DNA of 56,939 nt, filler included, from Bilabrum cf. latius (lineage: Eukaryota): assembly GCA_965178125.1 (NCBI GenBank). It is 2 parts of 2 records of this genome, joined end to end, with 100 filler letters (N's around TTAATTAATTAA, not from the genome) between each part and the next. Parts side by side here need not be neighbours in the genome. Positions count along the whole stretch, not along the records: positions 29,025 to 56,939 come from CBCXTV010000022.1; 1 more part is not named here. One strand, given 5' to 3'. Positions 1,436 to 50,886 of the stretch are shown here, piece after piece (position 1 is the first letter of the stretch; each line of letters starts with the position of its first letter). The notes beneath the pieces are model-generated. The model was given only the letters and a program-made list of their open reading frames with translations, was not told where the DNA came from and did no database searches. The translations under genes and the position numbers were made by a program.

Positions 1436-1462
1436 GAGGGGAAAATAAACACCTTTGCACAA

Positions 1463-34876: not shown

Positions 34877-34940
34877 GTAGTGCGATTTTCGGGAGAAGGA
34901 TTCTTAGTACCTTATAGGGTACCCCCCAGGATCGCACTAC
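34877..34940 (+). promoter_or_regulatory. Stem-loop origin candidate, copy 2
   Basis: GTAGTGCGAT (34877-86) / ATCGCACTAC (34931-40) enclosing TCTTAGTAC (34902-10) and an inner GTACC-N6-GGTAC hairpin. Homologous to 46313-46376. Confidence 0.55.
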
Positions 34941-35261
34941 GTGGGTTTGGGGGGTTGGTCTCCTTTCCTCTTGTTTTCGTGTGCACTCTTCTGCGACCGC
35001 CCCCCCCGGGGAACGGATGCACAACGGTATGCCACCCATGTCCTCGAGAGATCCACCGAGATCCGCACATACCTCTGCGGTGAACAGCACGTTACATGAG
35101 ACCCTGACCGACCCGAGAGTCTCTGCCCTCAGTCTCCACGACTTCCCGCAGGATCCGCCCCGCTCCCACCGACGGCTCCTGCCGTACGTACGACGCACCA
35201 TTTTCAAAAGAGCATTGGCACCCGCTCCTCACCTAAGCGACGATACTGTCGCTGCGGTCCC

Positions 35262-36326
35262 TCACGGCACGCTCTCCGGTCCGCCCGGTGCGAACTCAGA
35301 GTCGTCGTCTGTCGAAACGTGGTCGCTGTGGAAGATGTTGCTCTGGCCGTCTGAGGACACGGCATCCTGCCAGTATCGACGCAACTGCTCCGCCACGTCC
35401 ATGGCCGCATGGGAGCTCAGCGGGATCTGCTCGAAGAGAGCGTTACTGTCGTGCACTGCAAACAGCCTGGCCGCGACGCGATCTTGATGGCAAATTTCGA
35501 GTGTGGCGCGGATCCGGAAACAGTAGCCGTCCGGAAAGTTGCCCTGCATCAACTGGTCCTCCACCGCACACTGCGTGCACCAAATAGACCGCTCGGTACG
35601 TCGTATGTAGCCGGGCCACAGGGAATGCAGCAACGAGTACTGAGCCCGACGCAAGCTCTTCGGGTTGAAGCTGTCCGCCTGCTTGACCCGACTGCAGGCC
35701 TGGCACTTGAGGTTGGTGATCACGGCCGACTGCTCCCCAGCCAAATACCAGATCGTACGCGAGCGCAGCCTACGAGGAATCCACTGGCCCGACTTCCGGG
35801 GCACGACCATCGCCAAGAGCTTCGACTGCGGCGCGTCGATCTGCACCCTCGACCCGCAATCGCTGAGCGTAATGGCGTCGTCGAACACCCACGTGCCGCC
35901 CCAAGCATGACGCCTGCGCTGCTGCCGGGAGCTCGGGTTCGGTACCTCGCGAGGCCTGTCGGAAGGGGGGTCCGTCGGCTGCGGTGGTGTCGGATACCAG
36001 GAGAGAGCGGTCCACGGATTGATGCACGTGGACGTTGCCGCCTCGCGCGTCGCCGGAGTGGCTGAGCTGTCTGGTCGACGAAACGGTGGCGCCCACGCCG
36101 TGCAGGCCGCCACCTGCGCGGGCACATCGGGCAAGAATGCGCCTGCAGGTTCACGTGGCCGAGGTCGGGGAAGCTTCGTCGGGGTCAGGGATCCCATCGA
36201 GGAAGCCGCGTTCGCCGCTGGGATGGTCGTGCTCGAGGTTGACGAAGTCGCGTTCGCCCCTGACATGGTCGTGGTCGAGGTCACGGCATGGCCGCCGAGG
36301 GGTGAGCGCGATCGCGGGGGGTCCAT
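35262..36326 (-). CDS. Hypothetical protein with CxxC...CxxC zinc-finger-like motif
   Basis: 354-aa ATG ORF; CQACSRVKQADSF...WCTQC. Confidence 0.55.
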   Translation of the reverse strand: MDPPRSRSPLGGHAVTSTTTMSGANATSSTSSTTIPAANAASSMGSLTPTKLPRPRPREPAGAFLPDVPAQVAACTAWAPPFRRPDSSATPATREAATSTCINPWTALSWYPTPPQPTDPPSDRPREVPNPSSRQQRRRHAWGGTWVFDDAITLSDCGSRVQIDAPQSKLLAMVVPRKSGQWIPRRLRSRTIWYLAGEQSAVITNLKCQACSRVKQADSFNPKSLRRAQYSLLHSLWPGYIRRTERSIWCTQCAVEDQLMQGNFPDGYCFRIRATLEICHQDRVAARLFAVHDSNALFEQIPLSSHAAMDVAEQLRRYWQDAVSSDGQSNIFHSDHVSTDDDSEFAPGGPESVP

Positions 36327-37885
36327 CCGTTTAGTCTGCGGCCACGAGGCACGCGGCGAGCGTTACCACCGTGGACGCCTCCGTCGACCCCGTGTCCGGA
36401 CGCGACTGGGGCCCTGTTGATGAGCGCATCGTGCGGGAGAGGCTGCTGCGGACTGCTGATGAAGCGGAGCTGGTCGACAGACGGAGCATCGCTGGAGATG
36501 TCCTCCATGTCACACTCAAACAAGCGCCGTAGGGTCGAATGCAAGCGGCGCCTGCCGCTGGTAATGCCTGTCATATCGAAAGCGCCTTGCCACGAGCCAG
36601 ACGAGAGCACTCTCTTCGTGCACTCAGCGACAACCCTGAGATGGCAAGAGACATCGACATGACCCGCTTCATGACGCGAGCGCTCCTGCATCCACGTCTC
36701 CCGAAGGTCGCGCTTAAGAAGCTGAAAGACGAGAACGTCCAACGGCTGAAGCAAGAAGGTGAGTCGACCAGGAATAAACACGAGATCCATGCCAAGGCCG
36801 TGTGCGAAGTTCACAATCTCAGTGGAAATGTGTTGGGGCGCGCAGTCAAGTATCACTATTGGATAGATCTCATGCTGAATGTCCATCCAAGAAGCGAAAA
36901 GCCGACGCAGAATGTCGAACATGAGGGACTGCGTCACCCACGAGCTCTCTCGGGCCCAGACTTCCATTCCGTCCACCATTTGGTTCGACGCCCCACGCAT
37001 CAAGCGCTTGCTCAGCCGCGTGTGCTTCCCGATGAGTATACGCGGGAGTCGTCGCTGGATTTCCGGGCAGTCGCTAATGAAACCCAGAAAGGTGTACGAT
37101 CCTCGATTGCTATTCGAGGCGAGGCGCTCCGTGCGCGAACCAAGCGAAGCGGGCTCCGTTCCTGACCTCGGTGCGATGTACCCGCGCATTCCCGGAAAGG
37201 CAAAGGGCACGCTGGACTCATCGAAGTTCACAAAGACGAGGCGGCGGTTGCGGGGCACTCGCGCTTCTGCGAATTCAATCCACTGATAGAAGACACGACA
37301 CGCGAGTCTGACGTAATCGAGTGTTACCGGGGGCTGCTTCTTCAATCGGCCATGCCGAAGCCGCCAACGACGACGGAAGCGCAGGAGCCACTGCCGTCGA
37401 GCCGAGTCCTTCCCCGCGCGAACGCCCATCCTCGCAAGCATGGCGAAAACCATGCTCCCAGTTGGAGCACACCCACGCTGCTCGTTCACATGGTCGATCC
37501 AAGCAACGACAGAAGCCTCGGCGAGAAAGGTCTCCGCGCGTGCCACGGACTCTCGATGACATGAGCGAAGAGGATTTCGCTGCCACGCCTCAGCTGGGCG
37601 CCTCATGGTGAGCGCGACCTCCTCATCGACCTGCCTTTGAAACTCCTCCTGCGAAGCCGTCCGCGTGGAAACCTGTCGACTCTGCAACTGACGAGAGACA
37701 TAGGTTCGAAGAGCTGCCTCGCCACCTCCGGGGTGATGACGAATAACCTCAGCGACCTGTGCCTCCATGGCGCGCAACCACGGATGGCGCAGCCCATTGC
37801 GCGCCCGTTGTCTCGCGTCTCTGAGACACTTCAGCTCCTTACTGATCCGTGCGAGCTGATCCGGCACCGAAGCAGAGGACATCAT
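36281..37885 (-). CDS. pogo/Tigger/CENP-B-like DDE transposase
   Basis: HTH-like WLLRFRRRWRL. Catalytic-type motifs FVNFDES, VILDCAPQH, FIPGRLTFLLQPLDVLVFQLLK. Uninterrupted frame. Confidence 0.88.
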   Translation of the reverse strand: MMSSASVPDQLARISKELKCLRDARQRARNGLRHPWLRAMEAQVAEVIRHHPGGGEAALRTYVSRQLQSRQVSTRTASQEEFQRQVDEEVALTMRRPAEAWQRNPLRSCHRESVARAETFLAEASVVAWIDHVNEQRGCAPTGSMVFAMLARMGVRAGKDSARRQWLLRFRRRWRLRHGRLKKQPPVTLDYVRLACRVFYQWIEFAEARVPRNRRLVFVNFDESSVPFAFPGMRGYIAPRSGTEPASLGSRTERLASNSNRGSYTFLGFISDCPEIQRRLPRILIGKHTRLSKRLMRGASNQMVDGMEVWARESSWVTQSLMFDILRRLFASWMDIQHEIYPIVILDCAPQHISTEIVNFAHGLGMDLVFIPGRLTFLLQPLDVLVFQLLKRDLRETWMQERSRHEAGHVDVSCHLRVVAECTKRVLSSGSWQGAFDMTGITSGRRRLHSTLRRLFECDMEDISSDAPSVDQLRFISSPQQPLPHDALINRAPVASGHGVDGGVHGGNARRVPRGRRLNGWTPRDRAHPSAAMP

Positions 37886-38456
37886 GACGCGTGAGGAACC
37901 GGGCAGAAGATCGCTCACAGCCGAAACGACGCGGACGGACCCGCTGCCAAGCTTCGCACTGCCTGTGGCCTCTGAAGATACCCGGGAGGGATAGGACGCA
38001 GGCGGGGAGCGAGAGCAAGCGAATGCCTTCCTGTCGCTGGAGGAGTGCTCAAAGCTGAAGACGCGCGGGAAGCACGCGCTCTGCTGCGGTCACACTGGCG
38101 CAAGCGAGACAAAACCAGGGAGAGGGATAGACACGTGCACAGCATTGAATACACCGCGCAGCATTGCGAGCGCGGTTTCTCGCCTGCGCTGAGCTGCCAC
38201 TCTGCTCTCGTGCGGACGACATTGGCAACGGCAGCGCGTAGCTGCCAACTGGCCGTGCACGGGTACTGTATCGGCCACGGCAGCGCTGAGCTGCCAATTT
38301 CGGGTCGAGGAGCTCTCCTGAGGAAGACGAGGCCGGGAACTTTCGGCGAACACGCACACCCACCACCGCCCGGCACATGCGACGGCAAGCAATGTAAGGA
38401 ACGACGTTGCGCGATCGAATCTCGACAGGAGGCTCCGATGCAGGAGCTGCCGAGGA

Positions 38457-39005
38457 CTAGGCACCGCCGGCGCCCGCTGCGCCGCTGGGGAGGACGACGG
38501 TCGGCGGCGGCGAGTCCTCGGAACCCATGTCGTCTGATCCTGAGGAATCCAGCACAGTTGAGGCAGTCTCGGTCATCTCCCAGTCCGTACGCACCTCAAC
38601 GATGAGACGACGCGGAGGAGCAGCGACTGCTGTGTCAGGTCCGTGGATGACGCCTCCGTCCACAAGACGGAAAGACCTACCCGCAACGGAGCCGCTTGCG
38701 CCAGACATCGCACGCCGAATCACGGGATCAAAGTCTGCATGGAACCGAGGAGCCTCATCGCGCAACAGGCCTGAGAGCAGCCTGATCACACTTTGGGCGT
38801 ACTCCAGCTGAGCGCTCAAGCTTTCCGCACGCTGCTGCATGTTCTCGAAGCGCTGCTGCAGGTTCGACACCGCTGTCGAGTGAGGACTCGCTGGCGGGGC
38901 GGGGTTTGGGCGCTGCGGGGTCGCCACCGCGCGACGCGGCGACCTATCGCGGACAAAGGACGTCACCTCGTTCCGCGTCATGCTGCCGCACCTCTCCTTC
39001 CTCAC
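38457..39005 (-). CDS. Hypothetical protein with short coiled coil
   Basis: 182-aa ORF with NLQQRFENMQQRAESLSAQLEYAQ. Start uncertain because it overlaps a local duplication. Confidence 0.4.
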   Translation of the reverse strand: MRKERCGSMTRNEVTSFVRDRSPRRAVATPQRPNPAPPASPHSTAVSNLQQRFENMQQRAESLSAQLEYAQSVIRLLSGLLRDEAPRFHADFDPVIRRAMSGASGSVAGRSFRLVDGGVIHGPDTAVAAPPRRLIVEVRTDWEMTETASTVLDSSGSDDMGSEDSPPPTVVLPSGAAGAGGA

Positions 39006-39880
39006 ATTGACTCGAGCCGAATCGAAACTTGCAGGGACAGACGATCCTTTACCCTAGCGCTCCCCACATCGGGCATGAGTGGAATCCGAACCAGCGCACG
39101 GCATCCCACAGGAGTTCGCACCGGGCTTGCCTCATGAGGAATCTTCCTGCGCGAAGAGGTAAAGCCACGGACAGAAGTCAGAGGTCGCGGGATGACACTC
39201 CAGCATACATGAGCTGCCCGCTGAATCCGCCGCCCCCGAGCCCCAAGCTGACAATCGAGGTAACAAAGTAGGAATGAGCAGGCGGGGGCGATGCCACTAC
39301 GTCTCGCCGAACAGCCTGCCTCGCATGCGCTGTGCTGAAGACCTTATGGGAACCAGGAAGTGTGAACGTCTGTCACGTGAGGCGGAAGGGCTCCCACTGC
39401 ATCACACCCCCTCTCTGGAATGGGATTTGGGCGCTGTGGGGTCGCCACCGCGCGACGCGGCGACCTATCGCGGACAAAGGACTTCACCTCGGTCCGCGTC
39501 ATGCTGCCGCACCTCGCCGAATCGAAACTTGCAGGGACAGACGATCCTTTACCCAGCGCTCCCCACCCCGGGGATGAGTGGAAGCCGCACCAGCGCACGG
39601 CATCCCACGCGAGTTCGGACCGGGCTTGCCTCATGAGGAATCTTCCTGCGCGAAGAGGTAAAGCCACGGACAGAAGTCAGAGGGTCGCGGGATGACACTC
39701 TAGGCACACATGAGCTGCCCGCAGAATCCTCCGCCCCAAGCTCCGAGCTCACAATCGAGGTAACAAAGTAGGAATGAGCAGGCGGATGCTTTGCCACTCC
39801 GTCTCGCCAAACAGCCTGCCGGGGAACCAGGAAGTGTGGACGTCTGCCACGTGAGGCGGAAGCGCTCCCACCGCATCACA
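38900..39880. repeat. Diverged tandem duplication, period ~500 bp
   Basis: GCCGAATCGAAACTTGCAGGGACAGACGATCC at 39016 and 39516, with long flanking similarity. Confidence 0.8.
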
Positions 39881-40083
39881 CCCTTCCCGGGCAAGATATC
39901 TAGAGAGCTGCCCAATCCTGCACGAGAAACTCGGATTTTCACACGCTGCCGACCATATCGTTCCCAATCAAACGACCGTGCTCCTCCGACGTCGCGCTCA
40001 CCTCGGCGCAAGGATGACTCACTCGCGCTCTTCCTTCCGGAGCGCCCTCACAGTACGACGGACCCATTCGGGAAGCTCCCGCG

Positions 40084-41415
40084 TCACGCTGGCATCGTGA
40101 GGAGGAACCTTTCCGCATTCTGGAGAAGCTCCATGGCCCGCTTGATGTCATCCAAGGCCTCGTCACGCGAAGGACTCTGACGCACGGCGTTGCTGCAGGA
40201 GGCGGCGCCTCCTGCAGGAGGCTCGTCGCGTGCGGGAGCACGAGCGTCGTTGTCGCCGTCACCGGTATTCGCGCCAGCTTTTGGCACCCAACGCTTCGCT
40301 TCACCCGCAGAGGAACGGACATCATGGAGACTCCAGCCACGCGCAACCAGGCACTTCGCGCACCAGTCCTCAGGGAAGAAATAGCGCAGGTTCTCCTTCT
40401 TCCGGCGGATCTGGGGAAATCGGTACGCCGGATACTCGTTTTTGCAGTTCTTGCACCACACCCACCACGGCGTCGCGTTGTCGAACTTGTCGCAACACAC
40501 CCGGCAAACTGGTTGGATCCAGTCCTTCCACTTCTTGAAGTACGCCGACCGGGGCTTGCAGCACTGGCACGCGTTGCAAGTCCATGTCGCCTCCTCCGCC
40601 GGCTCCGGCGCGACCTGCCGCGGCACGTACGTCTCCCCCCATGACGACTTCGCAGGGGTCTCCCATAGATCCCAGCTATCAGCGCCAGAGACCGCCCCGG
40701 CAGTGTGCGCAAGATTCACACGCTGCGATGACAATGCCTCTGCCACGCCGCCACCCGCCTTCCAAGCGGCTGCGTCGGTCCATACGTCGTCATTACCTCC
40801 GGGCACCACAGCACGTCCACCGCCGCGAGCATCCTCCTCCTCCGTCTTCTTGCCGCCGTCGTCTTCGGCGTCCTCCTTCGGCGCTGCCTTGCCGCTCTCC
40901 TCTCCGAGCATCCCCGTGGACGCCGCCTCCGCGCCGCCGCTCTCGATGTGGGAGCCGCCCGAATCATCGACGCTTGCCGCCGCGCCGGCGTGCTCCGCCG
41001 GGGCGTCGACCTCGCGCGCCAACATGCCGCCCTCGTTTCCCATATCACCGGCGCCTCGACGCCCACGAAGATTGCGGCCGTCTCCCAAGGAAACAGCAAT
41101 GCTCTCGGACGGTTTCTCCTCAGACATCATCGGCAAAGAGACTCGGAGAATGCCGTTCCCGCAGAGTGCGCTGCTGACTGCCGAAGCCGAAAGAGGACCC
41201 GCGGAGAAGGAATCTCGCACATGCTCCCAGGAAAAGCAACTCCCCGCCCATTCCGAATGCAAGAACGGACTCCCGCCCTTTCCGAGATCGAGAGCGCATC
41301 GCGGGCGCATTTCCCGACTCGCGATCGGCCTCGGAAACCGACCACGAATCGGTAGGAGACGTGCGCCCGCGTTTGAAGAATACGCGGAGAAATACGAAGC
41401 CAAGGACACGAGCAT
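40084..41415 (-). CDS. Hypothetical protein with acidic disordered region and tandem CxxC zinc-finger-like motifs
   Basis: 443-aa ORF; WTCNAC..CKP...F...VCRVC and WCKNCK...F...WCAKC. True start may be the internal MM at ~41130. Confidence 0.6.
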   Translation of the reverse strand: MLVSLASYFSAYSSNAGARLLPIRGRFPRPIASREMRPRCALDLGKGGSPFLHSEWAGSCFSWEHVRDSFSAGPLSASAVSSALCGNGILRVSLPMMSEEKPSESIAVSLGDGRNLRGRRGAGDMGNEGGMLAREVDAPAEHAGAAASVDDSGGSHIESGGAEAASTGMLGEESGKAAPKEDAEDDGGKKTEEEDARGGGRAVVPGGNDDVWTDAAAWKAGGGVAEALSSQRVNLAHTAGAVSGADSWDLWETPAKSSWGETYVPRQVAPEPAEEATWTCNACQCCKPRSAYFKKWKDWIQPVCRVCCDKFDNATPWWVWCKNCKNEYPAYRFPQIRRKKENLRYFFPEDWCAKCLVARGWSLHDVRSSAGEAKRWVPKAGANTGDGDNDARAPARDEPPAGGAASCSNAVRQSPSRDEALDDIKRAMELLQNAERFLLTMPA

Positions 41416-41915
41416 CTCCCGGGCACCTTTCCCGACTCGCAGCCGGTCTCAGAGACGACCACGAATCGGCACGACAAGTGCGCCCGATTTCGTCCCCCGA
41501 AAAAGGACACAACTAGGACCCCGCGGAGATCCGCATCTGCTCCTCACGCGCGGAACGTGTTTCGGTACGCAAAAAGCGGTCACATGGGAGGCCCGGAAAG
41601 CGTCCGGAAAACGGTTCAGAAATACCTTGCGTCACTCCTCCTGCGCGCCAGAAATCACACGACTTTTCGGTGACCGAAACAGGGCCCAAAAAACCAAAGA
41701 TTTGCCCCTTCATGCCCGAAGACACAGCGTCACCGCCAAGCTGCCATCGCGGAGAAAATAAACCAGGTGGTGATGGAAAGTTACGTTACGGTGGAGCTCA
41801 GTGTCATTTGTGTGTTCAACAGTGTGTATGATGCCGCTTCGTCTGGATGTCCGAGTCCGGATTTCACCTGGGGTATGGCCTATTGTGTGGTCACGTTCGC
41901 GTAGCTTTCACGTGT

Positions 41916-42048
41916 CAACAACGCGGAGGCTGCGAAAAGAACCATGCTCACGAACCATGCTCCACCGTAGCTTGATCACAACGCGGAGGCTGCGAAAAGA
42001 ACCATGCTCCACCATAGCTTTCCAACAACGCGGAGGCTGCGAACGAAC
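41916..42048. repeat. Short tandem repeat x3
   Basis: ACAACGCGGAGGCTGCGAA(AAGAACCATGCTC) at ~41918, ~41978 and ~42025. Confidence 0.8.
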
Positions 42049-42249
42049 CGTGCACCACTGACCACCGTACAGCCCAAAAAGTACAAGTTTCTTGAACCCC
42101 AGGAGCAACATACGCGGGATACTGTCGAGCGCCCGTTCGCTCAGGTCACACGCGACAGCAAGCCGAACGCTCAGGTCGCACGCTCAGGCCACACGCGGAA
42201 GCAGCGCCACGCAAGAGGCCAGGTTGAGAGGGAAAACCGTCACGCAAGC

Positions 42250-43101
42250 TCAACGCGGAGACCACGAGTCGTCATCGCTCCAAGCCTCGCGTCCAGACAG
42301 ACGAACAAGCCCGCGCCATGCCTCATCGTAAAGATCCCTCTCGAAAACCCTGTGCTGCTTCATCGTTCCCAATGTCAGAATTTTCTCCGCAGTACAACGC
42401 TGCCCCTTCCGCTCCCCGGTCTCTACAATGAGATCCAACTGCATGCGAAGTGTTCCCGAGATCTTCTTCTTGTTCGCCGCGTTCATAATCGACGTCTTCG
42501 GCGCCGCGTCGCGCGCCTTCTCGCGACAAGCACGACAAGAAATCGCACCCCTGCCGCACGGAGAATCATCGGCATAAAGCGTGCGCTGCACGCGACGTAC
42601 GAGACGATCACGCATACGATGATTCAGGTCCGCCATGACACGATTGCAGCCGCAGGAAGAGCATACAAACTCCGCGAGGTCGAAAGCCTTAGAGTCCGAC
42701 CAAACGACGCACTGTGTGTCCTGGGGTGCCTCACTGCCGAGCGCTGTTATGAGCACCGCCGGATGGGCCGGCGACTTAGGAAGAAGTCGCGAACCGGGAG
42801 GAAACACGCGAGGCCGCTTGAAACCGACATCTCCGGCAAGAGGCGCAAGCATCATCTCCACCTCGCCCTCCGGGGCGTGCTCGGAGGTCGACGCGGCAAC
42901 CACGGCCACATACGGTGCATCGGCGATACCGACGTAGGCCATCAAGCAACGCACCCACCTTCGGCCCGCGAGCGTACACGGCGCGCCTACCGGAAGCAGA
43001 GGCTTCTGAGACCAAGAAATGTCTCGTCGGCGCGCGACGCGGCGACGTAAAAGCAAACGACCCGCCGGGTCCCAACCGCGGCACTGCGGAGACACACACA
43101 C
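42250..43101 (-). CDS. Hypothetical Cys-containing protein downstream of Rep
   Basis: 283-aa ORF co-oriented with Rep; CSSCGC and CRAC motifs. Start uncertain. Confidence 0.4.
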   Translation of the reverse strand: MCVSPQCRGWDPAGRLLLRRRVARRRDISWSQKPLLPVGAPCTLAGRRWVRCLMAYVGIADAPYVAVVAASTSEHAPEGEVEMMLAPLAGDVGFKRPRVFPPGSRLLPKSPAHPAVLITALGSEAPQDTQCVVWSDSKAFDLAEFVCSSCGCNRVMADLNHRMRDRLVRRVQRTLYADDSPCGRGAISCRACREKARDAAPKTSIMNAANKKKISGTLRMQLDLIVETGERKGQRCTAEKILTLGTMKQHRVFERDLYDEAWRGLVRLSGREAWSDDDSWSPR

Positions 43102-43336: not shown

Positions 43337-45622
43337 TCAGCTCTTCTGCACATCCGTGAGAGACAACAAGTCCTCGTCGAAGTAGAGCCGATCTTTCACC
43401 TCCACTTTCGTACAGTTGTTGTCAAGCCACTCGCGGTCCACCGACTCCGTCACGTCAGAGCCCCACGAATTCGTGCAGATGATCAGGGCGATACCGTGGA
43501 GCCACACAGAGTATGCGAGGCTGTTCGTCTTGCTCTGGCCGAGCAGGGAGGGGTCAAGGCCAGCCTGAAAGACCTGTTTGTTGTTGACGACCCACAGGGC
43601 ATTTGCCTCGTCGAACACAATGGCCACATGCCGACTTCGATCGAAGCCACGGAGCGGAGGTTCCACACTGCCCTGACAGTTCACAACAAGAGTCCTTTCG
43701 CTCCCGAAGAGATTCCGCGCGTACACTGTCTTCCCGAACCGGGAGTCCCCCACCAAGACAAGGAACTTGAAGCGCATGTGCGCGAACCACTCCTGACGAT
43801 AGCTCTCGCGCCACTTCTCGACTTCGGGCACCACCTTAAAGGGGCGGAGCTTCGTCACTACGTGCACCGCGGCCTGCGCGCACACCTCTCTCCTCTCCGC
43901 GGCATTCTGTATGTGGAAGTCGATGGCGCGCACTAAGTTCTCGGCGTCCCGACACCGATACGCCACGAGTTCCCTTCTCGCGACGTCCGGATCCATTTTG
44001 AAGCGTGCGAACAACGCGTGCACGAACTTACCATTGACGACGAAATCGCGTCCGGCTCGGTAGTTCGTGGCGCAAAGCAGCGCACCGACTTTGGGAGCTT
44101 GACAATAATAGTGTAACTCCGACGCGCCACGTTCCTGCGCTTTCGCTGACCGCCCGGAGCCGTACACGACATTCGGCCTGCTGCCGGCCCACATGAAATC
44201 CTCCGCCACGCGACAACGATGCGACTTCTCGGAATCCGTCATGCATACGTGGAAGTGCACCAAGTTTGCGGCGTGCTTGCGGTGCAGGGAGAGCTCCATT
44301 TTCATGGACAGCTGAGGCCACATCATCCGCCGCGCGATGTCCTGCGCCCATGCCTTGAAGGTGGCCCAAAGCTCCACATAGAACGGAGACGCGAGAACCA
44401 ATCGCCTCAGGACGCCCCTTGCCACGGATGCCGACATGATGTCGCGCACAGGCTCCTTTTCGACACCCCAGCGACCGTGAAAGGTAAGCATCACGGCCCT
44501 TCCCCGCCTCGTGTTCTTGTCGGACGCAGGCACAATCTCGCCCACGGGCACTGAATGCGATCCCGGATTCCTCACAACTTCGTCCCGCTGCCGCGCAAGC
44601 TCCGGGAAGAGCTCCTCGAAACGAAGCTGGCAAGGAGTGTCCTCCGCCCCCGCAGCCCAGTCTTTCAAGATGCACATGCGGTCACCGGGTACATTGCGAA
44701 GCGCCTCCCTGATGAGGCACCGCTTCCGCTGGTGTGACACCGACGCCGGAAACGCCAACTTGAAATCGTCAGGGAAAACCCGCAGGAGACGATAGATGAC
44801 ACTATCAATAGGACGAGTCGAAGGCCTTCCAGTCGAGCGCTGCGGCCCAGACGCTCCGGCCGCGGCACGAGCCGCGGGCGGAGGTCCGAGATGAGCCGCA
44901 AGACTCGATGCTGCATCGCCCTCAGCAGGGTCGCACTTCTGCCGAAGACGCCGCCTCTTCACGGGGGGCACGAAATCGGGAAGCATGAGCATCTGCGGTC
45001 GCCCCCTCGCATCGGGCGCAGAATCCTCGATGGGCAGAACCCCACGGTAACCTTGACTACTCCGCAGAAGCTGCACCGGCAAAAGTACTTCCTCTGACGG
45101 GGGTTCCAAATTGATGACACCCGCGGCGAGCGCTTCGGAGGCAGCAACGCGGCCAGGAATGTCGCCCTCAACGCTGAGGCCCTCATAAAGGACTCGTTCA
45201 CCCACTACGCCGATCTGCCACTGACCGCTCGACTTGCCGTGGGACAACAAGCAGGCTCCCGGATCGCCCTCGCATTCTGCCTCGCATGCGACCTCGCATG
45301 AGGCCTCAATCATGTCGAGACTGGCGTCGAAGTCGTTCTCCGCATCGTCAAAGCCAAAACTCGGGACAGCGGCCGCGCGCGCTGCAGCCACCGAATTGGA
45401 GACACCGAGGCCACACGAGCACGTTGGGGACGCCTCGGACACCCCTAACAAAGCAGAGGTCGCCGTCGTGGACGCTTCTGACTCCTGGCTTGTGGGGAGG
45501 CCATCGCACGGCACGCAGCTCGCGGAAACCCACGCGGGATCCCAGGAGCAGGATGCGACTCGGGACTTCAGCGACTCGGCAACAGACAAACTCATCGTTT
45601 CGCCCTTGAACGGAGCCGACAT
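43337..45622 (-). CDS. rep: CRESS-DNA-virus-like replication initiator Rep (HUH endonuclease + SF3 helicase) with long N-terminal extension
   Basis: Motif I VMLTFH (~44477-94), motif II VHFHV (~44246-60), motif III HYYCQAPK (~44090-114), Walker A GDSRFGKT (~43727-50), Walker B IVFDE, motif C IICTN. Intact 761-aa ATG ORF. Confidence 0.88.
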   Translation of the reverse strand: MSAPFKGETMSLSVAESLKSRVASCSWDPAWVSASCVPCDGLPTSQESEASTTATSALLGVSEASPTCSCGLGVSNSVAAARAAAVPSFGFDDAENDFDASLDMIEASCEVACEAECEGDPGACLLSHGKSSGQWQIGVVGERVLYEGLSVEGDIPGRVAASEALAAGVINLEPPSEEVLLPVQLLRSSQGYRGVLPIEDSAPDARGRPQMLMLPDFVPPVKRRRLRQKCDPAEGDAASSLAAHLGPPPAARAAAGASGPQRSTGRPSTRPIDSVIYRLLRVFPDDFKLAFPASVSHQRKRCLIREALRNVPGDRMCILKDWAAGAEDTPCQLRFEELFPELARQRDEVVRNPGSHSVPVGEIVPASDKNTRRGRAVMLTFHGRWGVEKEPVRDIMSASVARGVLRRLVLASPFYVELWATFKAWAQDIARRMMWPQLSMKMELSLHRKHAANLVHFHVCMTDSEKSHRCRVAEDFMWAGSRPNVVYGSGRSAKAQERGASELHYYCQAPKVGALLCATNYRAGRDFVVNGKFVHALFARFKMDPDVARRELVAYRCRDAENLVRAIDFHIQNAAERREVCAQAAVHVVTKLRPFKVVPEVEKWRESYRQEWFAHMRFKFLVLVGDSRFGKTVYARNLFGSERTLVVNCQGSVEPPLRGFDRSRHVAIVFDEANALWVVNNKQVFQAGLDPSLLGQSKTNSLAYSVWLHGIALIICTNSWGSDVTESVDREWLDNNCTKVEVKDRLYFDEDLLSLTDVQKS

Positions 45623-46130
45623 TATTTGCGCAAATAATCCTTCGACGAATCGCGGAATGCCTCAAGATAGAACACTTGCCTCCGACACGCAATGCCCAGA
45701 ATCCTTGCTGTTCGAAACACCGAAACTGCTGACACGGGACACACATGAGCACCGAGGCAGCTGAGTCTGCAGCTCGTGCCGCCCTGGGCGAGGTAGTACC
45801 GCTTCCGAGGGAAGGATTCTCGAAGCCAACGAAGGAAAGCATGGCGTTGCAATTAGCACGATCACAAACGCACTTCGGAGCCTGCCAGAGAGGATGACCG
45901 ACCGACCGCCTTCTCGAACATAGAAACCGGCGAATACCACATGAGGCACGACGTTCCAGGGCATCCGAACCTGCGACATACGCCAAAAAGGCCTCGCCGA
46001 CAACCTGAAATGCACGCGAAATCGACAACCGAACGCCCAAAATCAGCCATCGGAACCCCCCCTCGAGGCAGCGCCTTCGGAGACATTTTCGGCCAGCGAA
46101 AAAAATGCGAAACACGACTGGAGGAGGCGA

Positions 46131-46376
46131 GGTAGTGCTCGGTAGTGCTCGTTTCGCGCGGTTTTTACATAAAAAAATGCCGTTTTTCTGGAAAAAAAAG
46201 CTCAAAAACCCCCAGTTTTTGACACGTAGTGCTCCGATTTTCCTGTAAAATGCAGGATTTTTTCACGGTAGTGCTCCCCTTTTTTCCGCTTTCCCCGACG
46301 CCAGGGACCGATGTAGTGCGATTTTCGGGGGAAGGATTCTTAGTACCTTAGAGGGTACCCCCGAGGGTCGCACTAC
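46131..46376 (+). promoter_or_regulatory. Iterons plus stem-loop: candidate rolling-circle origin, copy 1
   Basis: GTAGTGCTC at 46132, 46142, 46226 and 46268. Stem GTAGTGCGA (46313-21) / TCGCACTAC (46368-76) enclosing TCTTAGTAC (46338-46). Lies 0.5-0.75 kb upstream of rep. Confidence 0.6.
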
Positions 46377-46798
46377 GTGGGTTTGGGGGGTCTCCTTTCC
46401 TCTTATTCTCGCGTGCACTTTTCTGCGACTGCCCCCCGGACCTTCCGCGCATATCTGCTCGCTCTGATTCTACGGGGGGGCGGGGGTAATCAAGGATTAA
46501 TGCCAAATTTGTCTTCCTTTCGTGCCCCTCCCGTTTTTCAAAGTTGTGCATGTCGAGTCTGCCCCTCCCGTGCTCTTGACGACGGTGCTCGCGGACTGAG
46601 TGATTTCTGCCAGCACGTCCCGTGTATGCTGTCCGAGTGCGCGACTCCGCTGGGCAGCCGCATCCGCTGCTTTGTGCTGCTCGGGCTATCTGTGTCCGTC
46701 AAGACTGCGCTGTACTTGACGCTCTGCCCTCTTGCGATGGCTTCTGTGACGCGGGGTCTATCTGTAATCCTCGGTTCTCTGAACACGGGAAGCGCTTC

Positions 46799-47269
46799 TC
46801 ACAAGGTCGACTTCGCCTGGCTCGTTGAGGAGTTGGCGGAGCTGCGTGCTGCGATCTCTTCTTTTTGCACCAACTGCAAGATCTTCCTGTCTAGCACGAT
46901 TTGGGCGAGCTCGTCGTCTGTGAGTTTTTTGGCGTTCTTCATGGTGCGCCTTTTCTGCCGGATGGTTTTGCGGATGGCCTTCGTTTTAGCCCGCTGCTCG
47001 AGCTTGAGAGCCTTGCGCTCCTCGGTAAGGCGTGTGATCGCTGCCGTCCACTTGTCGACGAACAAGGGTGTGTCGCCAGGTTCGTCCGTCTTGGCGGTCT
47101 TCTCTAGCGCTTCCATGTGTCCGTCTTTCGGGCAGGGCTCCTCGAAGAACTGCTGCGCATGATCTGGTTTCTGTGATCCTGCCTCCGTCGCTTCGGGTGG
47201 CGCCGCTGCATCCGCATCTCTAGGGGAGTCGAGCCGCATTGCGTCCTCCGGTTCTGCGTCGCTCGCCAT
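46799..47269 (-). CDS. Small protein with acidic N-terminus and basic coiled coil
   Basis: ATG at 47269; ITRLTEERKALKLEQRAKTKAIRKTIRQKRRTMKNAKKLTDDELAQIVLDR. A diverged copy of its 3' end and downstream flank lies at ~33755-33895. Confidence 0.6.
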   Translation of the reverse strand: MASDAEPEDAMRLDSPRDADAAAPPEATEAGSQKPDHAQQFFEEPCPKDGHMEALEKTAKTDEPGDTPLFVDKWTAAITRLTEERKALKLEQRAKTKAIRKTIRQKRRTMKNAKKLTDDELAQIVLDRKILQLVQKEEIAARSSANSSTSQAKSTL

Positions 47270-48144
47270 GGGGTGTGCAGTGAGTTTGCTTCCTGAGCGG
47301 GCTGCTTTTCTGTGCGAAGCTTCTGGCAGTTGCTGTATTCCTGGGCCCAAAAAAAACTCAGCGAGAAGTGCTTTCACATGGAGGTGGTGCGGTAAGAAGT
47401 GCGCGGGTCCTTGTAGACTGAAGTGCTTCCTGCGCAGAATGGGAGAAGTTCCACTGCGGGGTCTCTCAGACGCGTCTGCATGAGGAGGTGGGGGGTGCGT
47501 CATGGTTGCATGCGAGAAGGTGAGCTTCGAGGCGGCGCCTGGGAAAGCCTTTCTGGGTCGTCTGGATGCTGCGAAATTTGCGAAAAAGGGGTCCCAATTT
47601 TGGGCCCGTTTTCGGTGACAATTTCAAGCCTCCCGCATCGTGTTTTCCTCTTGTGTACCCCTTTTTGGGCTCAAAACTGGTCCCGGAAAGTGTGACCTCG
47701 AAACTGCGTCCTTCGCGGTCCTCCCTTTGGCTTCTGGGGCCTCAGGTGTTTCCCTTTTTTCTGTGGGCAGCACTCTTTTTTGCGGAAGGGCGTTCCAGAT
47801 TTTTGTCTGACGATGCCGCTTTAAAAAAGGACTTCTGATGTGGTGCGTGCTGGGTCCTGTCATCTCCAGACTTCCTCCGAGGATGCACACATGAGCGGGA
47901 AGAGGACACACATTGGCAGAAGAACTTCTGGACTTGTGACTCTGAAGAGCTTTGCGACTTTGGCACTGCGTGCTGCCAGCGTTCATGCACCGAGAGCATG
48001 CGGATCTCCACGTGCTATGCGACTTCCGGAGAGAATGGGACCGATGGAACTATGTGACCCTCCAACTCCGGCGCTCGGCGGCCTTCTGCTGTTGCCTGCG
48101 GAGCTTTGTCTCCTCGCAACGCGCTGTTCTGCGGCATTTCGTCG

Positions 48145-50886
48145 TCAGGGCTCGTGCTTTACGCCGGGTGCCGGGGTCAGGCGCGCTCTCTTCGAAGGCT
48201 GTGCCTCAGTCCTGTTGGTGGAGGGCGACCTGGAATAGGATGAGGACGATCTGGAGCAGGATCTCGTGTCCTTGAGGCTTGCGCTCCTCGCGAGCTTCAA
48301 CGAATTCCCGTGGAAGGTCCGCGGAAGGCTCACGTACTCCTCCTCGTCCACGTCATACGGCTCACTGCCCTGCTGCTGCCGCCACTGGTTGATCACAAGC
48401 TTGATGAACGTTTTGCCCCAGCTCCATTCGGAATGACTCTGTGCCTGCTCGGTGAGCCACTTGTTGTATGCGATGTTCACCGTTTTGATGCCCTGCACCG
48501 CGGTGTAGAGATGCCCCGCGTTGAAGCGGTAACCTCGGTCGTCGGCATCCTGAAGGTTGTACCGGAGCCGGGCGTCCGCATGGCCGATGTCGTCCGAGGG
48601 GATGTGCTCGAAGACCTTTTGGCACTGGCGGCTCACGAACGGGTCGACGATGCACTGCGTGCTTTCCGCGTACTTGATCATGTGCCACATGGCTTCCTCG
48701 GCAAACCATTTGGAATAACTCAAGAGGTTATAGGTCTTGTCCTTGGCCCTTGAGTAGTTGTTCGCAATGTCCCCGGGCAGTCCCGCGCGCGCTGGAGTCC
48801 AGCACGGCGCGCCTCGTCTGCACAGCGGGCCGTTCTTGAGGAGCTGCTTCCTGTTGCTCTTGTGCGGAGCGTACAGAGTTCGGATGACGTCTGGGATCAC
48901 GGTGTCCGTGGCAGTCCTGCCCTTAAACATGAAGTGGTTCCAGGCCACGGTCCAGCTCATGATGGGATAGTGCACTTGCATCGGAGGTATGAGCGTGAGG
49001 AGGCCCACGGTTTTCGCCAAGGATGCTCCCCAAGTAATCCAATCATCACTCGGGTTCTTCTCGTCGTGCCTCCTTTTGGGGATCATTTTCGGGAGGAGGA
49101 ACGTTGGCGTTATGATGCGCTCCCCGAACTGCTTCGTGAGGTGCTTCATCATGCCCACCCAGACCTGTCCCAGCGGTTTGGTTGTCATGCGGATCACGAC
49201 GAGGCGCGAGCTGCTGTCCCCCTTTAGGATGTCTTCCAACTCGTTCTGCAGCGCCTGCTTTGCCTCAAGGATGTAGTACTGGATGCTGTTGTCCTTCCCG
49301 TCGTTCATCCACTCCTGCTGCTCCTCTTGGCATCTCCCCTCGAGGCTATGCGCCGCCAAGTCCCTGTCGTCGCAGAGGACAAGCGCGTGGGTTGAGGGTG
49401 GCCACTCCAGCCATGAGGGCAGCTCGGCCCCCGGCATCTCCGTGTGGAGTTTATCGATCCACTTCTGCTTGACTTGGATCCATCGAGCGGTCTGCCATTT
49501 CAAGGGAGGCAGGGTGTTCATCTTGGGCCTCTTCATGGCTACCATGTCGAGCATTCTGTCGAGGGTGGGGATGCACATCATCGGCTGCACCACGTGGATG
49601 CGGATGTCTCCGTACCTCAGGAAGTACGAATACGACCCGCCGCGTTTGTCCTGGAGGAGGTGGACGAACGTGTTGGTTTCGCCGGCGTGCTCGTGAACAC
49701 CGCACAAGTCTTCGTAGGAGATGGGCACGCGCTCTGTTTTTTCCCAGACGAGGACAACCCCCCAACTCAGGGCCGCGCACACGGACATCACGACGGACAA
49801 TGTGTTTAATCGCTCGCCAAGAGTCCAGTCGTCACTCGGGTCGATCATTATGTACGGTTTCATACTGTGCCCTGCATCCGCACTTCGTCGTCCCGAGCCC
49901 CCCCACTCCGTGTCCATGCTCTCGGGAGTCGATGCGAGGACCGGGCTGGCTGCCAGCACAGATGTCATGCGGAGGCAATCTTCCCACTTCCATACCGGCC
50001 CTTGGAACGTGTCGAAGAGGCGGCGCCAGACGCAGCGTTCGAAGCTTCGGTTCGGGATCCGCATCTTCAGGAGCGCCTTCCTCCCCTCCGGGCTGATGAG
50101 ATACCACTTTAGGCCCATGCCGACGTGGTAGGGGACCACAAATGTGTTGTCTACCCAGTGCGCCGGATAGGTCCGCACGTCCAAGAGGCGCTCGCAATTG
50201 TGGATGGAGGTGGAGTTTTCGCGCTGGAGGCTGACCATTCTCGGTGCTTCTGACCCCGCTAACATGGCCATCTGCGTCACCTTGGGGTTTTTCGCGATGG
50301 CGTGAAGAACTACGAGTAGCCGATCCACGCATGCTTCGCGAGGTTCGATATCATCTTCGACAACCATGAGCCATTCCGTCGGCGTGTGGTTCTCAGCCCA
50401 CAGCCATGCGTTTCGATGGGATTGGATCGCCCCAACAGTGGCCGGATTGTATTTGCTCCAGTCCGTTATCTTGCCGGAGAAGATATCCAAGAGGGCCTGG
50501 TCTTTGACGATGTCGCGTCCATCTGGGTCCCTGTCGGTCTGCGGAAACACTGGATTGGGGAGCCGAAGGACCGCTCCCATGTGCTCGTGGAGTTCTCGCG
50601 CCCCTTTTTTTTGTCGCCACTCCTCGAAGCGGGACTCTTCCCTGCAGATCAGCAGACATGTCATCTTCCCGAGGTCCTGGCGATGGTGTCCGAATTGCGC
50701 CTGGAAGCCCGACATCTCCAGAGACGGGAAATGGCATGCGCTGTGTGTCCAGCGGCGATCTTGCACTTCTGCTCCCGAAACTCGCGAATGCAGGATCCGG
50801 GAACATGAGCCTTGAAGGCGGCGGATTTTTGGATGGGGACACCCGCGTCCTCTCTTCGCGAGCTTCGTCCTGATCCGATGCCCCAA
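48145..50886 (-). CDS. Putative glycosyltransferase: GT25-like domain followed by a fucosyltransferase-like segment
   Basis: 913-aa intronless ORF. GAIQSHRNAW and MVVEDDI plus WYLISPEGRKALL fit the GT25 pattern; LGERLNTLSVVMSVCAALSWGVVLVW resembles GLGNRL-type starts. Start codon uncertain. Confidence 0.6.
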   Translation of the reverse strand: MGHRIRTKLAKRGRGCPHPKIRRLQGSCSRILHSRVSGAEVQDRRWTHSACHFPSLEMSGFQAQFGHHRQDLGKMTCLLICREESRFEEWRQKKGARELHEHMGAVLRLPNPVFPQTDRDPDGRDIVKDQALLDIFSGKITDWSKYNPATVGAIQSHRNAWLWAENHTPTEWLMVVEDDIEPREACVDRLLVVLHAIAKNPKVTQMAMLAGSEAPRMVSLQRENSTSIHNCERLLDVRTYPAHWVDNTFVVPYHVGMGLKWYLISPEGRKALLKMRIPNRSFERCVWRRLFDTFQGPVWKWEDCLRMTSVLAASPVLASTPESMDTEWGGSGRRSADAGHSMKPYIMIDPSDDWTLGERLNTLSVVMSVCAALSWGVVLVWEKTERVPISYEDLCGVHEHAGETNTFVHLLQDKRGGSYSYFLRYGDIRIHVVQPMMCIPTLDRMLDMVAMKRPKMNTLPPLKWQTARWIQVKQKWIDKLHTEMPGAELPSWLEWPPSTHALVLCDDRDLAAHSLEGRCQEEQQEWMNDGKDNSIQYYILEAKQALQNELEDILKGDSSSRLVVIRMTTKPLGQVWVGMMKHLTKQFGERIITPTFLLPKMIPKRRHDEKNPSDDWITWGASLAKTVGLLTLIPPMQVHYPIMSWTVAWNHFMFKGRTATDTVIPDVIRTLYAPHKSNRKQLLKNGPLCRRGAPCWTPARAGLPGDIANNYSRAKDKTYNLLSYSKWFAEEAMWHMIKYAESTQCIVDPFVSRQCQKVFEHIPSDDIGHADARLRYNLQDADDRGYRFNAGHLYTAVQGIKTVNIAYNKWLTEQAQSHSEWSWGKTFIKLVINQWRQQQGSEPYDVDEEEYVSLPRTFHGNSLKLARSASLKDTRSCSRSSSSYSRSPSTNRTEAQPSKRARLTPAPGVKHEP

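Follow-up and report, generated by a model that had tools for sequence, protein, structure and literature searches.

The window analysed here, a stretch of 56,939 nt (filler included) from Bilabrum cf. latius (GCA_965178125.1), probably contains one integrated unit lying amid its own shuffled fragments. The unit would belong to a family of eukaryotic replicons, so far undescribed, whose genes all run in one direction and whose core is a CRESS-type Rep and a pogo-like DDD transposase. The window joins two records, not necessarily genomic neighbours, with 100 N's; positions are counted along the joined stretch, and positions 29,025-56,939 are from CBCXTV010000022.1. Its features are:

29024-33221, minus strand: lower scrap field, from self-BLAST and tblastn
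34869-35005, minus strand: second copy of the hairpin segment, 89% identity
35262-36326, minus strand: orfA, 354 aa, Cys-cluster, GC3 0.78
36281-37885, minus strand: DDE_1 transposase, pogo-like, 534 aa, catalytic D222, D347 and D383
38457-38981, minus strand: 174-aa ORF with a predicted coiled segment, from the ORF listing
40084-41415, minus strand: 443-aa ORF with CxxC clusters, N-terminal half of low complexity
42250-42942, minus strand: 230-aa Cys-rich ORF (orf230), immediately downstream of Rep
43337-45622, minus strand: Rep, 761 aa, Y1 HUH and SF3
46132-46437, minus strand: origin-like region between bCC and Rep
46799-47503, minus strand: basic coiled-coil ORF (bCC), 234 aa
48145-50715, minus strand: GT protein, 856 aa, with an N-terminal GT-A glycosyltransferase fold
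50716-53700, no strand: stretch without convincing genes
54637-56939, minus strand: upper scrap field, up to the window end, in pieces of 35-840 bp

The eight co-oriented minus-strand genes claimed by an earlier, sequence-only reading of this DNA are confirmed by an ORF listing: all start with ATG, all are intact, and they span 35,262-50,715. GC3 exceeds both GC1 and GC2 in seven of the eight, orf230 being the exception (GC3 0.65, GC1 0.64). Two ORFs at 51152-52341 are without the GC3 pattern of the cluster ORFs. The CxxC proteins of that reading are recovered as CxxC pairs in the translations of the 443-aa and 230-aa ORFs and as the Cys-cluster of orfA. Its boundaries cover the intact unit and leave out the scrambled array around it.

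The HUH + SF3 Rep that had been claimed is confirmed as genuine in the 761-aa ORF. Its N-terminal ~360 aa are disordered and include a KRRRL motif; a Y1 HUH endonuclease and an SF3 helicase follow. Motif I (LTFHGRWG), the HUH histidines (H456, H458) and Y506/K511 are invariant in an alignment of 11 sequences, as are Walker A (G630, K631, T632), Walker B (D671, E672) and motif C (N718). The core motifs, including the H456, H458, Y506 and K511 columns, are also invariant in a 30-sequence alignment, and both alignments contain only one invariant Tyr. The AlphaFold (AF2) model has a pLDDT of 91.3. Its top Foldseek matches in BFVD are Cressdnaviricota Reps (E 1.9e-15 to 1e-10, ~400 columns); in the PDB they are AAV2 Rep68 (8.3e-09) and a Vientovirus Rep (6.2e-07), then E1, NS1 and LTag helicases, and the helicase domain matches those of E1, LTag, NS1 and Rep40. 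The TM-scores stay low (0.2-0.4), since the domains are placed differently relative to each other. By Atlas features, the protein is nearest to Cressdnaviricota Rep clusters (0.96-0.98). A profile search finds 3007 representatives of the Rep family at E<=1e-3, 2112 at <=1e-10 and 941 at <=1e-30.

Among known systems the closest Reps are those of CRESS-DNA viruses and pCRESS plasmids, which likewise consist of a Y1 HUH endonuclease and an SF3 helicase. The window Rep differs from these in its ~360-aa N-terminal extension, in a motif III spaced Y-x4-K, where CRESS Reps have YxxK, and in having no match to a Pfam Rep family. It matches 0 Pfam families at E<=0.1, and Viral_Rep, Gemini_AL1, RNA_helicase and Parvo_NS1 are unmatched by 11 Rep members (E<=1) and by 10 long relatives (E<=0.01). 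Helitrons and Replitrons are likewise eukaryotic mobile DNA built around an HUH Rep. According to the Replitron paper (PMC10288648), the Helitron Rep is of the Y2 type and comes with an SF1B helicase, and that of Replitrons is Y1 and lacks a helicase. The paper ties the Replitron Rep weakly to CRESS Reps and describes neither element with a DDE gene, the term DDE being absent from its text. With an SF3 fold in its helicase and a single invariant Tyr, the window Rep is no Helitron Rep; with a conserved helicase fused to the Y1 domain, it is no Replitron Rep either. The claimed misfit to both groups therefore stands.

Upstream of the Rep gene, four GAGCACTAC words occur at 46132-46276, where 0.16 are expected and 0 of 100 shuffles reach four. 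These iteron words adjoin a hairpin within 46305-46437, whose stem GTAGTGCGA/TCGCACTAC shares the word and whose loop is devoid of the canonical nonanucleotide. The second hairpin segment, 11.4 kb apart and in the same orientation, is flanked by a ~47-bp direct repeat. The stem is predicted in both copies, with unexceptional folding z-scores of -1.3 and -2.2. CRESS replicons likewise carry an origin-like hairpin with iterons beside the rep gene, and a metagenomic relative, L015, contains CATGAT words and a hairpin whose stem measures 16 bp.

An intact pogo/CENP-B-like DDE transposase had also been proposed, and the ORF matches Pfam DDE_1 well above the cut-off (E 1.4e-11, 44.7 bits; cut-off 22). 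The CENP-B/Tc5 HTH (HTH_Tnp_Tc5) is seen below threshold only (E 0.04, 14.3 bits vs a cut-off of 22.2). The DDD triad D222/D347/D383 is invariant in 9/9 sequences of 21-83% identity, with a D347-D383 spacing of 36, and so are N220, E223, H352 and the whole of Q380-P381-L382-D383. A word search finds five homologues at 50-99% identity. The DDE_1 domain, the triad and the 36-residue spacing are shared with pogo/Tc1-mariner elements. Unlike pogo transposons, however, the gene is apparently single-copy, is always co-oriented with the Rep gene in linked loci, has its HTH below threshold, and shows no TIRs or TA duplications: within 35000-40200 there are only chance-level inverted repeats, and the gene has no TIR/TA boundaries of its own. 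Termini of the element as a whole were looked for at the cluster flanks and none was found; there is no match of at least 18 nt between 33000-35300 and 50700-55000, and no TIRs or TSDs were detected. The integration by the DDE enzyme that the sequence-only reading envisaged thus finds no DDE-type ends here. The 3' end of the DDE gene is overlapped by orfA over 46 nt; a likeness of orfA to Stc1 is a weak lead only (Pfam E 0.065, Atlas 0.77).

Rep and DDE are linked at other loci as well. They lie on one strand of one contig in four of 36 metagenomic Rep loci (L002, L015, L029, L032), that is, in 3/3 loci of at least 11 kb and in 1/33 shorter ones. A fifth linkage is inferred from P0002 (Rep, 53%) and P0165 (DDE, 50%), since each is seen on one contig of identical size, 14,535 bp. 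No DDE is seen in the other 32 loci, all of which are shorter than 11 kb; it is missing despite 3.9 kb of upstream flank in L036, 4.3 kb of downstream flank in L035 and 3.0-3.2 kb of downstream flank in L009 and L019. The DDE may therefore not be universal in the Rep family. Of the five loci compared, no two are more alike than L029 and L032, in Rep (52%) as well as in DDE (41%). The window likewise lies close to P0002/P0165 in both genes, and the other pairs share 23-36% in Rep and 24-28% in DDE. The two genes diverge in parallel. DDE-linked Reps fall into at least four separate clades of a quick tree of 30 rows. In L015, all main ORFs are on one strand and a 99-bp exact terminal repeat gives a period of 13,056 bp; the repeat could come from a tandem array instead of a circle.

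The core of the family would be these two genes, and the remainder would be variable "dark" cargo, in the window copy a GT-A glycosyltransferase fusion protein and several Cys-cluster proteins. The 856-aa protein does start with a GT-A fold (residues ~4-265), in agreement with the glycosyltransferase reported earlier; its C-terminal ~590 aa are conserved, have no assigned fold and are predicted at low confidence to be mostly helical. Seven homologues share 35-98% identity over 90-100% of the query. Neither tblastn nor phmmer finds a counterpart of the GT protein in 37 fetched Rep loci, so it is lineage-specific cargo at most; orfA and the 443-aa and 174-aa ORFs are also without counterparts in the fetched loci by the same searches. 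No homologue was found for the 174-aa ORF, whose 5' part is within a ~500-bp tandem duplication (38901-39320 and 39422-39820, 88%). The 443-aa ORF matches no Pfam family and has near-identical partial copies at 29024-30037 and 56624-56938. orf230 has a homologue in the same post-Rep position in L001 (tblastn 9.6e-13, phmmer 1.3e-13). An ORF between DDE and Rep in L015 resembles bCC weakly (26% over 57 aa, pairwise E 0.006), a match of the kind that basic low-complexity helices readily give.

Pieces of the cluster recur on both sides, at 29,024-33,221 and 54,637-56,939. The inserted array is therefore at least ~28 kb long and contains a single intact unit. In each of the two scrap fields, pieces of orfA, the 443-aa ORF, Rep and the GT ORF are shuffled together; tblastn finds no DDE-gene fragment in either. 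In the lower field, 29025-30156 is 99.8% identical to 40403-41534, and there are older pieces of Rep (86%) and of the bCC end (82%). The upper field includes a GT piece (49675-50512, 98.6%) and a perfect palindrome at 54696-54892 with 97-nt arms, built from a GT fragment. It also contains a copy of 53610-53689, and for this reason the gene-poor 50716-53700 may either be part of the element or lie at its junction.

Four sequencing runs from 4 studies, possibly of one strain or species, were compared. The locus is near-identical in all four; the listed contigs of 0.5-3.2 kb differ by 0-11 letters. The lower-field joint 35947>44158 is present in the contigs of 4/4 runs and 48694>40954 in 3/4. Among upper-field joints, 41624>53610, 40862>35462, 43497>40827 and 40083>41364 are seen in 4/4 runs, and 35500>49675 and 35580>40112 in 3/4. 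The stretch 50483-53639 is contiguous with the GT gene in three runs and falls into two contigs in X4 (50061-53052 and 53044-53639). Contig depth, a poor measure of copy number, is about the same over Rep and DDE as over 50.5-53.6 kb in 4/4 runs (207-217 vs 183 in X1, 51-57 vs 55 in X2) and hints neither at an episome nor at multiple copies. The joints listed include no circle-type joint that the scrap fields leave unexplained. Within this genome there seems to be a single, chromosomal copy of the element, and the amplification claimed for it is not visible, as depth equals that of the adjoining stretch.

Two other explanations were weighed. Chance might have brought a CRESS-like Rep EVE, a separate pogo transposon and unrelated host genes together in a transposon-rich region. 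In keeping with this reading are a Copia-like ORF at 14005-17472 with sub-threshold rve and RVT_2 matches, the want of DDE fragments in the scrap fields and the 32 of 36 Rep loci in which no DDE is seen. This is improbable, and already disfavoured, given the same-strand linkage in four loci at 23-36% Rep identity with parallel divergence. Moreover, the DDE is TIR-less and apparently single-copy, it has just five word-search relatives, unlike an autonomous transposon, and orfA, downstream of and overlapping it, is shuffled together with Rep and GT fragments. Alternatively, Rep, DDE and their neighbours could be fixed, immobile host genes derived from an ancient element. The eight intact ORFs and the near-identical locus at single-copy depth in all runs would suit such domestication, but the conservation argument is limited by runs that possibly represent one strain or species. 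The scrambled fragments of 93-100% identity that flank the unit at either end speak for a recent reshuffling of copies, whether extrachromosomal or duplicated, a relative (L015) assembles as a circle, and the iteron/hairpin region is kept beside Rep and duplicated; we regard domestication as very improbable.

An endogenous virus of a new lineage, which would form particles, use the DDE as its integrase and encode a capsid hidden among the dark ORFs, is unlikely, though less so than these two. Its capsid candidates would be orfA, the 443-aa and 230-aa ORFs, the C-terminal 590 aa of the GT protein and the 220-240-aa ORFs of L015. In line with the earlier remark that no capsid ORF is recognisable, Pfam detects no capsid or other virion family in the eight window ORFs, in 20 further ORFs or in 47 of 99 candidate flanking ORFs from Rep loci. 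The window and loci ORFs likewise have no Pfam match to a double jelly-roll capsid, packaging ATPase, pPolB, primase-helicase or RVE/YR integrase. Among 2.9 million IMG/VR contigs, 10 pattern matches gave 0 confirmed relatives. The C-terminal part of the GT protein is predicted, at low confidence, to be mostly helical, and 11-19 kb is far above the genome size of CRESS viruses with single-jelly-roll capsids. The test for a capsid fold is a weak one because structure predictions cover two proteins only. From negative searches of dark ORFs, the element may be without a capsid.

In the integrated-replicon reading that we prefer, Rep would nick the hairpin/iteron origin immediately ahead of the Rep gene and so drive rolling-circle replication in the nucleus, where the element would exist as an extrachromosomal circle of ~11-19 kb. 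This step is suggested by the fold of Rep, by the origin-like repeats and by the circular assembly of a relative. The transposase would mediate entry into or exit from chromosomes, as do the RVE integrase of Polintons and the piggyBac transposase of Teratorn; this role is proposed because the linkage is conserved and the catalytic triad intact. The window copy resembles fragmented and religated DNA. It may have arisen when extrachromosomal DNA was broken and ligated into the chromosome by illegitimate recombination, rather than as a clean transposase product. Both replication and DDE-mediated integration are proposals.

A broader version is more tentative, with somewhat less than an even chance: a widespread and as yet unnamed class of eukaryotic mobile elements, "Rep-DDE replicons". 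These would be capsid-less circular nuclear episomes of ~11-19 kb that use a CRESS-type Rep to replicate and a pogo-like DDD transposase to shuttle in and out of chromosomes, and the transposase would have evolved together with Rep from the root of the family onwards. If so, most of the ~940-3000 Rep clusters would be Rep-DDE replicons, and these would be the rolling-circle counterpart of Polintons and casposons.

A full-text literature search found no published element with a Rep + DDE architecture, so that the cluster does not match a described family there. With this, the four outcomes that the sequence-only reading named as refuting it (unlinked Rep and DDE, a DDE with its own TIR/TA boundaries, an ORF matching a capsid family, an already described family) have all turned out in its favour, and its interpretation as a whole is partly supported. 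Teratorn (a piggyBac-herpesvirus fusion) and Polintons/Mavericks (pPolB and RVE integrase) likewise combine a self-replicating genome with a DDE-type integration enzyme, and are reported to live both in and out of chromosomes (PMC10175614, PMC5601938). The window element differs in its rolling-circle Rep, its pogo-like transposase and its much smaller size; Teratorn and Polintons carry virion genes, whereas none is seen in the window element. CRESS virus genomes are a few kb long, whereas the unit described here is 11-19 kb, has a linked DDE transposase and no recognised capsid gene. Integrated geminivirus-related arrays in plants consist of rearranged, partly tandem CRESS-type fragments that arose through illegitimate recombination. 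To our knowledge these arrays are degenerate and without a transposase; in contrast, the window locus retains a complete unit with eight open ORFs.

With moderate confidence, we assign the intact gene cluster, as an integrated copy, to an undescribed replicon family that is coded unidirectionally and has a CRESS-type Rep and a pogo-like DDD transposase as its conserved core. The cluster and the main features around it are:

35,262-50,715, minus strand: eight ATG ORFs, namely orfA, the transposase gene (DDE), ORFs of 174, 443 and 230 aa (the last being orf230), Rep, a 234-aa basic coiled-coil ORF and an 856-aa ORF with an N-terminal GT-A glycosyltransferase fold (GT)
34,869-35,005, same orientation as the original: copy of a hairpin segment, bracketed by a direct repeat within 34822-35054
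53705-54615: array of a 397-bp unit (2.3 copies) with a 54-bp unit inside it (11.6 copies), bordering the intact unit on its upper side
54696-54892: perfect palindrome with 97-nt arms

The eight co-oriented ORFs noticed in the sequence-only reading are confirmed. They encode 174-856 aa, leave no large ORF-free gaps and include a single overlapping pair, the DDE gene and orfA (46 nt). GC3 exceeds GC1 and GC2 in seven of the eight, the pattern of real genes (window GC ~60%); orf230 is borderline (GC3 0.65 against GC1 0.64), and two more ORFs at 51,152-52,341 do not have the pattern. The surrounding sequence appears to be eukaryotic and to abound in mobile DNA. It includes a Copia-like ORF (rve and RVT_2 matches, both sub-threshold) and a RING-finger ORF (zf-RING_2, 9e-10). 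The window contains no tRNA genes and no match, at up to three mismatches, to the dinoflagellate spliced-leader relic (21-mer query).

Neither Rep (761 aa) nor its relatives match any Pfam family. A word-based search returned 10 relatives with 30-53% identity, a metagenome scan 36 loci, and an exhaustive profile search 3007 representatives at E<=1e-3, of which 2112 remain at <=1e-10 and 941 at <=1e-30; with thousands of profile matches and no Pfam family, the Rep family is therefore both large and uncurated. All expected motifs are kept in the alignments: motif I (LTFHGRWG), the HUH histidines H456 and H458, Y506 and K511, followed by the SF3 motifs Walker A (G630-K631-T632), Walker B (D671-E672) and motif C (N718). 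A structure model of residues 360-761, built from 30 sequences (mean pLDDT 91.3), finds its best BFVD matches over ~400 columns among Cressdnaviricota Reps (E 1.9e-15 to 1e-10), including those of a genomovirus, a geminivirus, a crucivirus, a kirkovirus and uncultured CRESS viruses. Two-domain matches in the PDB are AAV2 Rep68 (8.3e-09) and Vientovirus Rep (6.2e-07), and further matches are the SF3 helicases papillomavirus E1, B19V NS1 and SV40 LTag. Protein-language features agree with this placement. Comparison with solved-structure sequences, using the single sequence, an 11-row profile and a 30-row profile, gave nothing meaningful (30-row best E 0.16, P-loop only). Kept motifs and a confident model thus bear out the proposed HUH plus SF3 architecture, and because of them the helicase is assigned to SF3 and not to the Pif1 type of Helitrons. 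The presence of a helicase also distinguishes the protein from the Reps of Replitrons, which are defined as lacking one in the available text of PMC10288648. Searches of PLSDB plasmids gave no match (tblastn), 10 pattern matches in IMG/VR viral contigs yielded none confirmed, and GTDB genome contigs held a single match, a 1,859-bp contig in a MAG, on which gene context is absent.

The 534-aa DDE protein passes the Pfam DDE_1 threshold (44.7 bits), and its D222, D347 and D383 triad and QPLD motif are invariant in nine aligned sequences with 21-83% identity, as the earlier call of an intact pogo-like transposase would have it. The N-terminal Tc5/CENP-B HTH is a sub-threshold lead only. Inverted repeats flanking the gene do not rise above chance, so it shows no TIR boundaries of its own, and none links the two flanks of the cluster. 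Only five relatives were returned by a word-based search (50-99% identity); the 99% relative and a 98% relative of GT are both on a contig of 25,927 bp. In two metagenomic loci, L015 and L002, the gene consists of two ORFs for which in-frame GT-AG joins exist; the joins are ambiguous and compatible with an intron.

Rep and DDE are also linked outside this window. Tblastn and a DDE profile agree on a DDE relative on the same strand as Rep in 4 of the 36 Rep loci (L002, L015, L029 and L032); all three loci that reach 11 kb are among them, as is one of the 33 shorter loci. The DDE profile found none in the other 32, which have at most 5 kb of total flank each and are mostly uninformative; these include L036 (3.9 kb upstream) and L035 (4.3 kb downstream). 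A Rep relative (P0002, 53% identity) and a DDE relative (P0165, 50%) each occur on just one contig, of 14,535 bp in both cases, presumably the same one and a fifth linkage. The two genes diverge in parallel. Of the loci compared, L029 and L032 resemble each other most in both genes, sharing 52% identity in Rep and 41% in DDE; identities between the remaining pairs run from 23 to 36% (Rep) and from 24 to 28% (DDE). In a 30-row Rep tree, the six rows with a linked DDE are spread over four or more distinct clades; this is a quick tree, in which a row without a DDE label is of unknown status and not a case of DDE absence. Linkage in divergent loci and parallel divergence fit an old association and not a chance insertion of a transposon beside a Rep gene. 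The conserved linkage put up for testing in the sequence-only reading is borne out for these two genes; the one counterpart of the coiled-coil ORF is a weakly similar basic ORF in L015 (26% over 57 aa, pairwise E 0.006).

L015 (13,155 bp) closes on itself: its final 99 bp are identical to its first, so that the period is 13,056 bp and the contig represents a circle or else a tandem array. Its main ORFs all share one strand: Rep is followed by three dark ORFs, then DDE in two parts and a short ORF for a basic coiled-coil protein, after which a non-coding stretch leads back to Rep. The non-coding stretch carries a hairpin with a 16-bp stem and CATGAT words.

An origin-like region is also found in the window. 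The 1.2-kb spacer from the 234-aa ORF to Rep contains four GAGCACTAC words (0.16 expected; 0 of 100 shuffles reach four) and a hairpin with the stem GTAGTGCGA/TCGCACTAC, which shares the core of that word. No canonical nonanucleotide was seen in the region. The hairpin segment recurs 11.4 kb downstream, just past orfA, as a copy of ~135-137 bp with 89% identity; folding energies of the two hairpin copies are unremarkable (z -1.3 and -2.2). Bracketed by a ~47-bp direct repeat (ctcgaggacatgggtggcataccgttgtgcatccgtt...), the second copy looks as if it had been inserted with a long duplication. Geminivirus partial repeats show how a Rep can free a unit circle when two origins point the same way. 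By analogy, the two hairpin copies could act as ori and ter, with Rep releasing a circle of 11.4 kb. Rolling-circle replication would start from the hairpin/iteron region, and the transposase may mediate integration or excision. Among other origin candidates, the 54-bp repeat array (53857-54502) was also weighed, and the 97-nt-arm palindrome was rejected because it consists of a piece of the GT gene duplicated in inverted form.

Self-comparison places the intact unit among its own scraps, at 29.0-33.2 kb and from 54.6 kb to the window end (56.9 kb). These are pieces of 35-1,132 bp in shuffled order, derived from orfA, the 443-aa ORF, Rep, the GT gene and 53,610-53,689, mostly 93-100% identical to the intact unit with a few older ones at 82-89%; they include a 72-bp GT fragment three times and the palindrome, itself built of a GT fragment, and no DDE fragments. 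Contigs of four sequencing runs (four studies, four organism labels) cover 30 of 30 bins of the 20-kb stretch compared, most of them at least 99% alike, and of nine scrap joints listed, six recur in every run and the remaining three in three of the four. Because contigs and joints recur in this way, the arrangement is real, chromosomal and common to the four samples. The samples may be one species, and recurrence in the runs is therefore not evidence of spread. In each run, depth over Rep and DDE is about that over the adjoining 50.5-53.6 kb, and contig depth, a weak measure, gives no sign of an episome or extra copies in the four runs; the suggested amplification is thus not seen in this genome. 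Among the 15 joints listed, every "goes back" joint is a junction already present in the window scrap fields and has no bearing on circles. The architecture resembles fragmented foreign or extrachromosomal DNA ligated into a chromosome, not a clean cut-and-paste insertion.

Outside the core, the cargo is variable. A homologue of the 230-aa ORF directly follows Rep in one locus (L001), and no other cargo is common to the fetched loci; orfA, the 174-, 443- and 234-aa ORFs and GT have no homologue in 37 loci (phmmer, E<=0.01). orfA gives a weak Stc1 zinc-finger lead, and the GT-protein model is of poor quality beyond residue ~265. Of 99 candidate flanking ORFs in the loci (140 aa or longer), 47 were compared with Pfam, and none has a match at E<=0.001. 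We infer that the element lacks a capsid. A true endogenous virus with an unrecognised capsid is an unlikely alternative. Chance juxtaposition of Rep and DDE, the two being neighbours in a neighbourhood that looks rich in mobile DNA, is less probable still, as it does not fit their linkage in divergent loci and their parallel divergence. Least probable in our estimate is a domesticated host locus, against which stand the self-closing relative and the scrambled fragments around the unit.

The favoured reading, a replicon with a Rep and transposase core, groups the element with Rep-encoding replicons and replicon-transposase chimeras; a bolder reading would make it a new class of element. Eukaryotic elements built on a Rep comprise, to our knowledge, CRESS viruses and plasmids, Helitrons and Replitrons, and a DDE transposase is not known from any of these. 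Full-text searches, outside subscription journals, Repbase and supplementary files, found no paper describing an HUH plus SF3 Rep element with a DDE transposase and no already described family that matches. Mriyavirus-like groups have HUH endonucleases with RVE or tyrosine-recombinase integrases (Polinton-like virus preprint, 2026, 10.64898/2026.06.19.733378), and neither "DDE" nor "transposase" occurs in the available text of that preprint. Joining a replication module to an integration module is also the logic of Polintons, casposons and Teratorn (the last reviewed in PMC10175614). A CRESS-type Rep kept together with a pogo-like enzyme would be a new combination of such modules and would supply a concrete intermediate between plasmids, viruses and transposons. 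Since the Rep family is large and invisible to Pfam, it could provide annotations for many genes now called "hypothetical" in eukaryotes and metagenomes, which could allow a new source of endogenous viral-like DNA to be tracked in protist and algal genomes. The window copy is intact, keeps all its ORFs open and includes a candidate origin, and would lend itself to tests of Rep nicking, circle formation and transposase activity.

Several minor features were observed. A 5'-truncated ORF upstream of DDE and Rep (L029:1-759) carries a GGYDE...DVDL..R stretch, which is reminiscent of the C-terminal motif of GT2/GT7-type glycosyltransferases; the ORF has no Pfam match at E<=0.1, and if the motif is real, glycosyltransferase cargo would recur in the family. 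In L015:1-13155, the short imperfect palindromic word GGGAGCTTGCAGCCCC has at least 19 copies, often at ORF starts or ends; L029 has GAGGCGTTGC four times and its core GGCGTTGCCC five times, and L036 has GAGCGTTCAG/GCGTTCAGCC six times. These words could be transcription or processing signals of elements or hosts, and no comparable word was found in the window unit. Of two palindromic pairs sharing TGCCTGTTTGG/CCAAACAGGCA (L015:964-1137), one is centred on a (TA)n run in the non-coding stretch upstream of Rep; the pairs may represent transposon ends that abut in a circle, or else sites bound by proteins.

Within the window, the Copia-like and RING-finger ORFs are enclosed by a 188-bp direct repeat pair (97.3%; 8440-8626 and 23200-23387), itself inside a 435-bp inverted pair 25 kb apart (89.7%; 322-743 and 25802-26233); these may be ends of other large mobile elements beside the cluster. 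At 38901-39820, a ~500-bp tandem duplication (88%) takes in the start of the 174-aa ORF (29 codons) together with the sequence upstream of it. Plus-strand AT skew is positive at 35-46 kb and negative at 46-55 kb, switching at ~46 kb in the origin-like spacer with all genes on both sides on the minus strand, and could reflect separate histories of the two halves or a replication-linked asymmetry. Contigs of all four runs break or diverge in the 53705-54615 repeats (loose ends at 53686, 53745 and 53992). Relative to the window, all four also have 10 extra nt after 43232, where a spacer separates Rep from the 230-aa ORF, and a cluster of small indels in the GT ORF (48773-48819), which represent either a strain difference or a local assembly error in the window.
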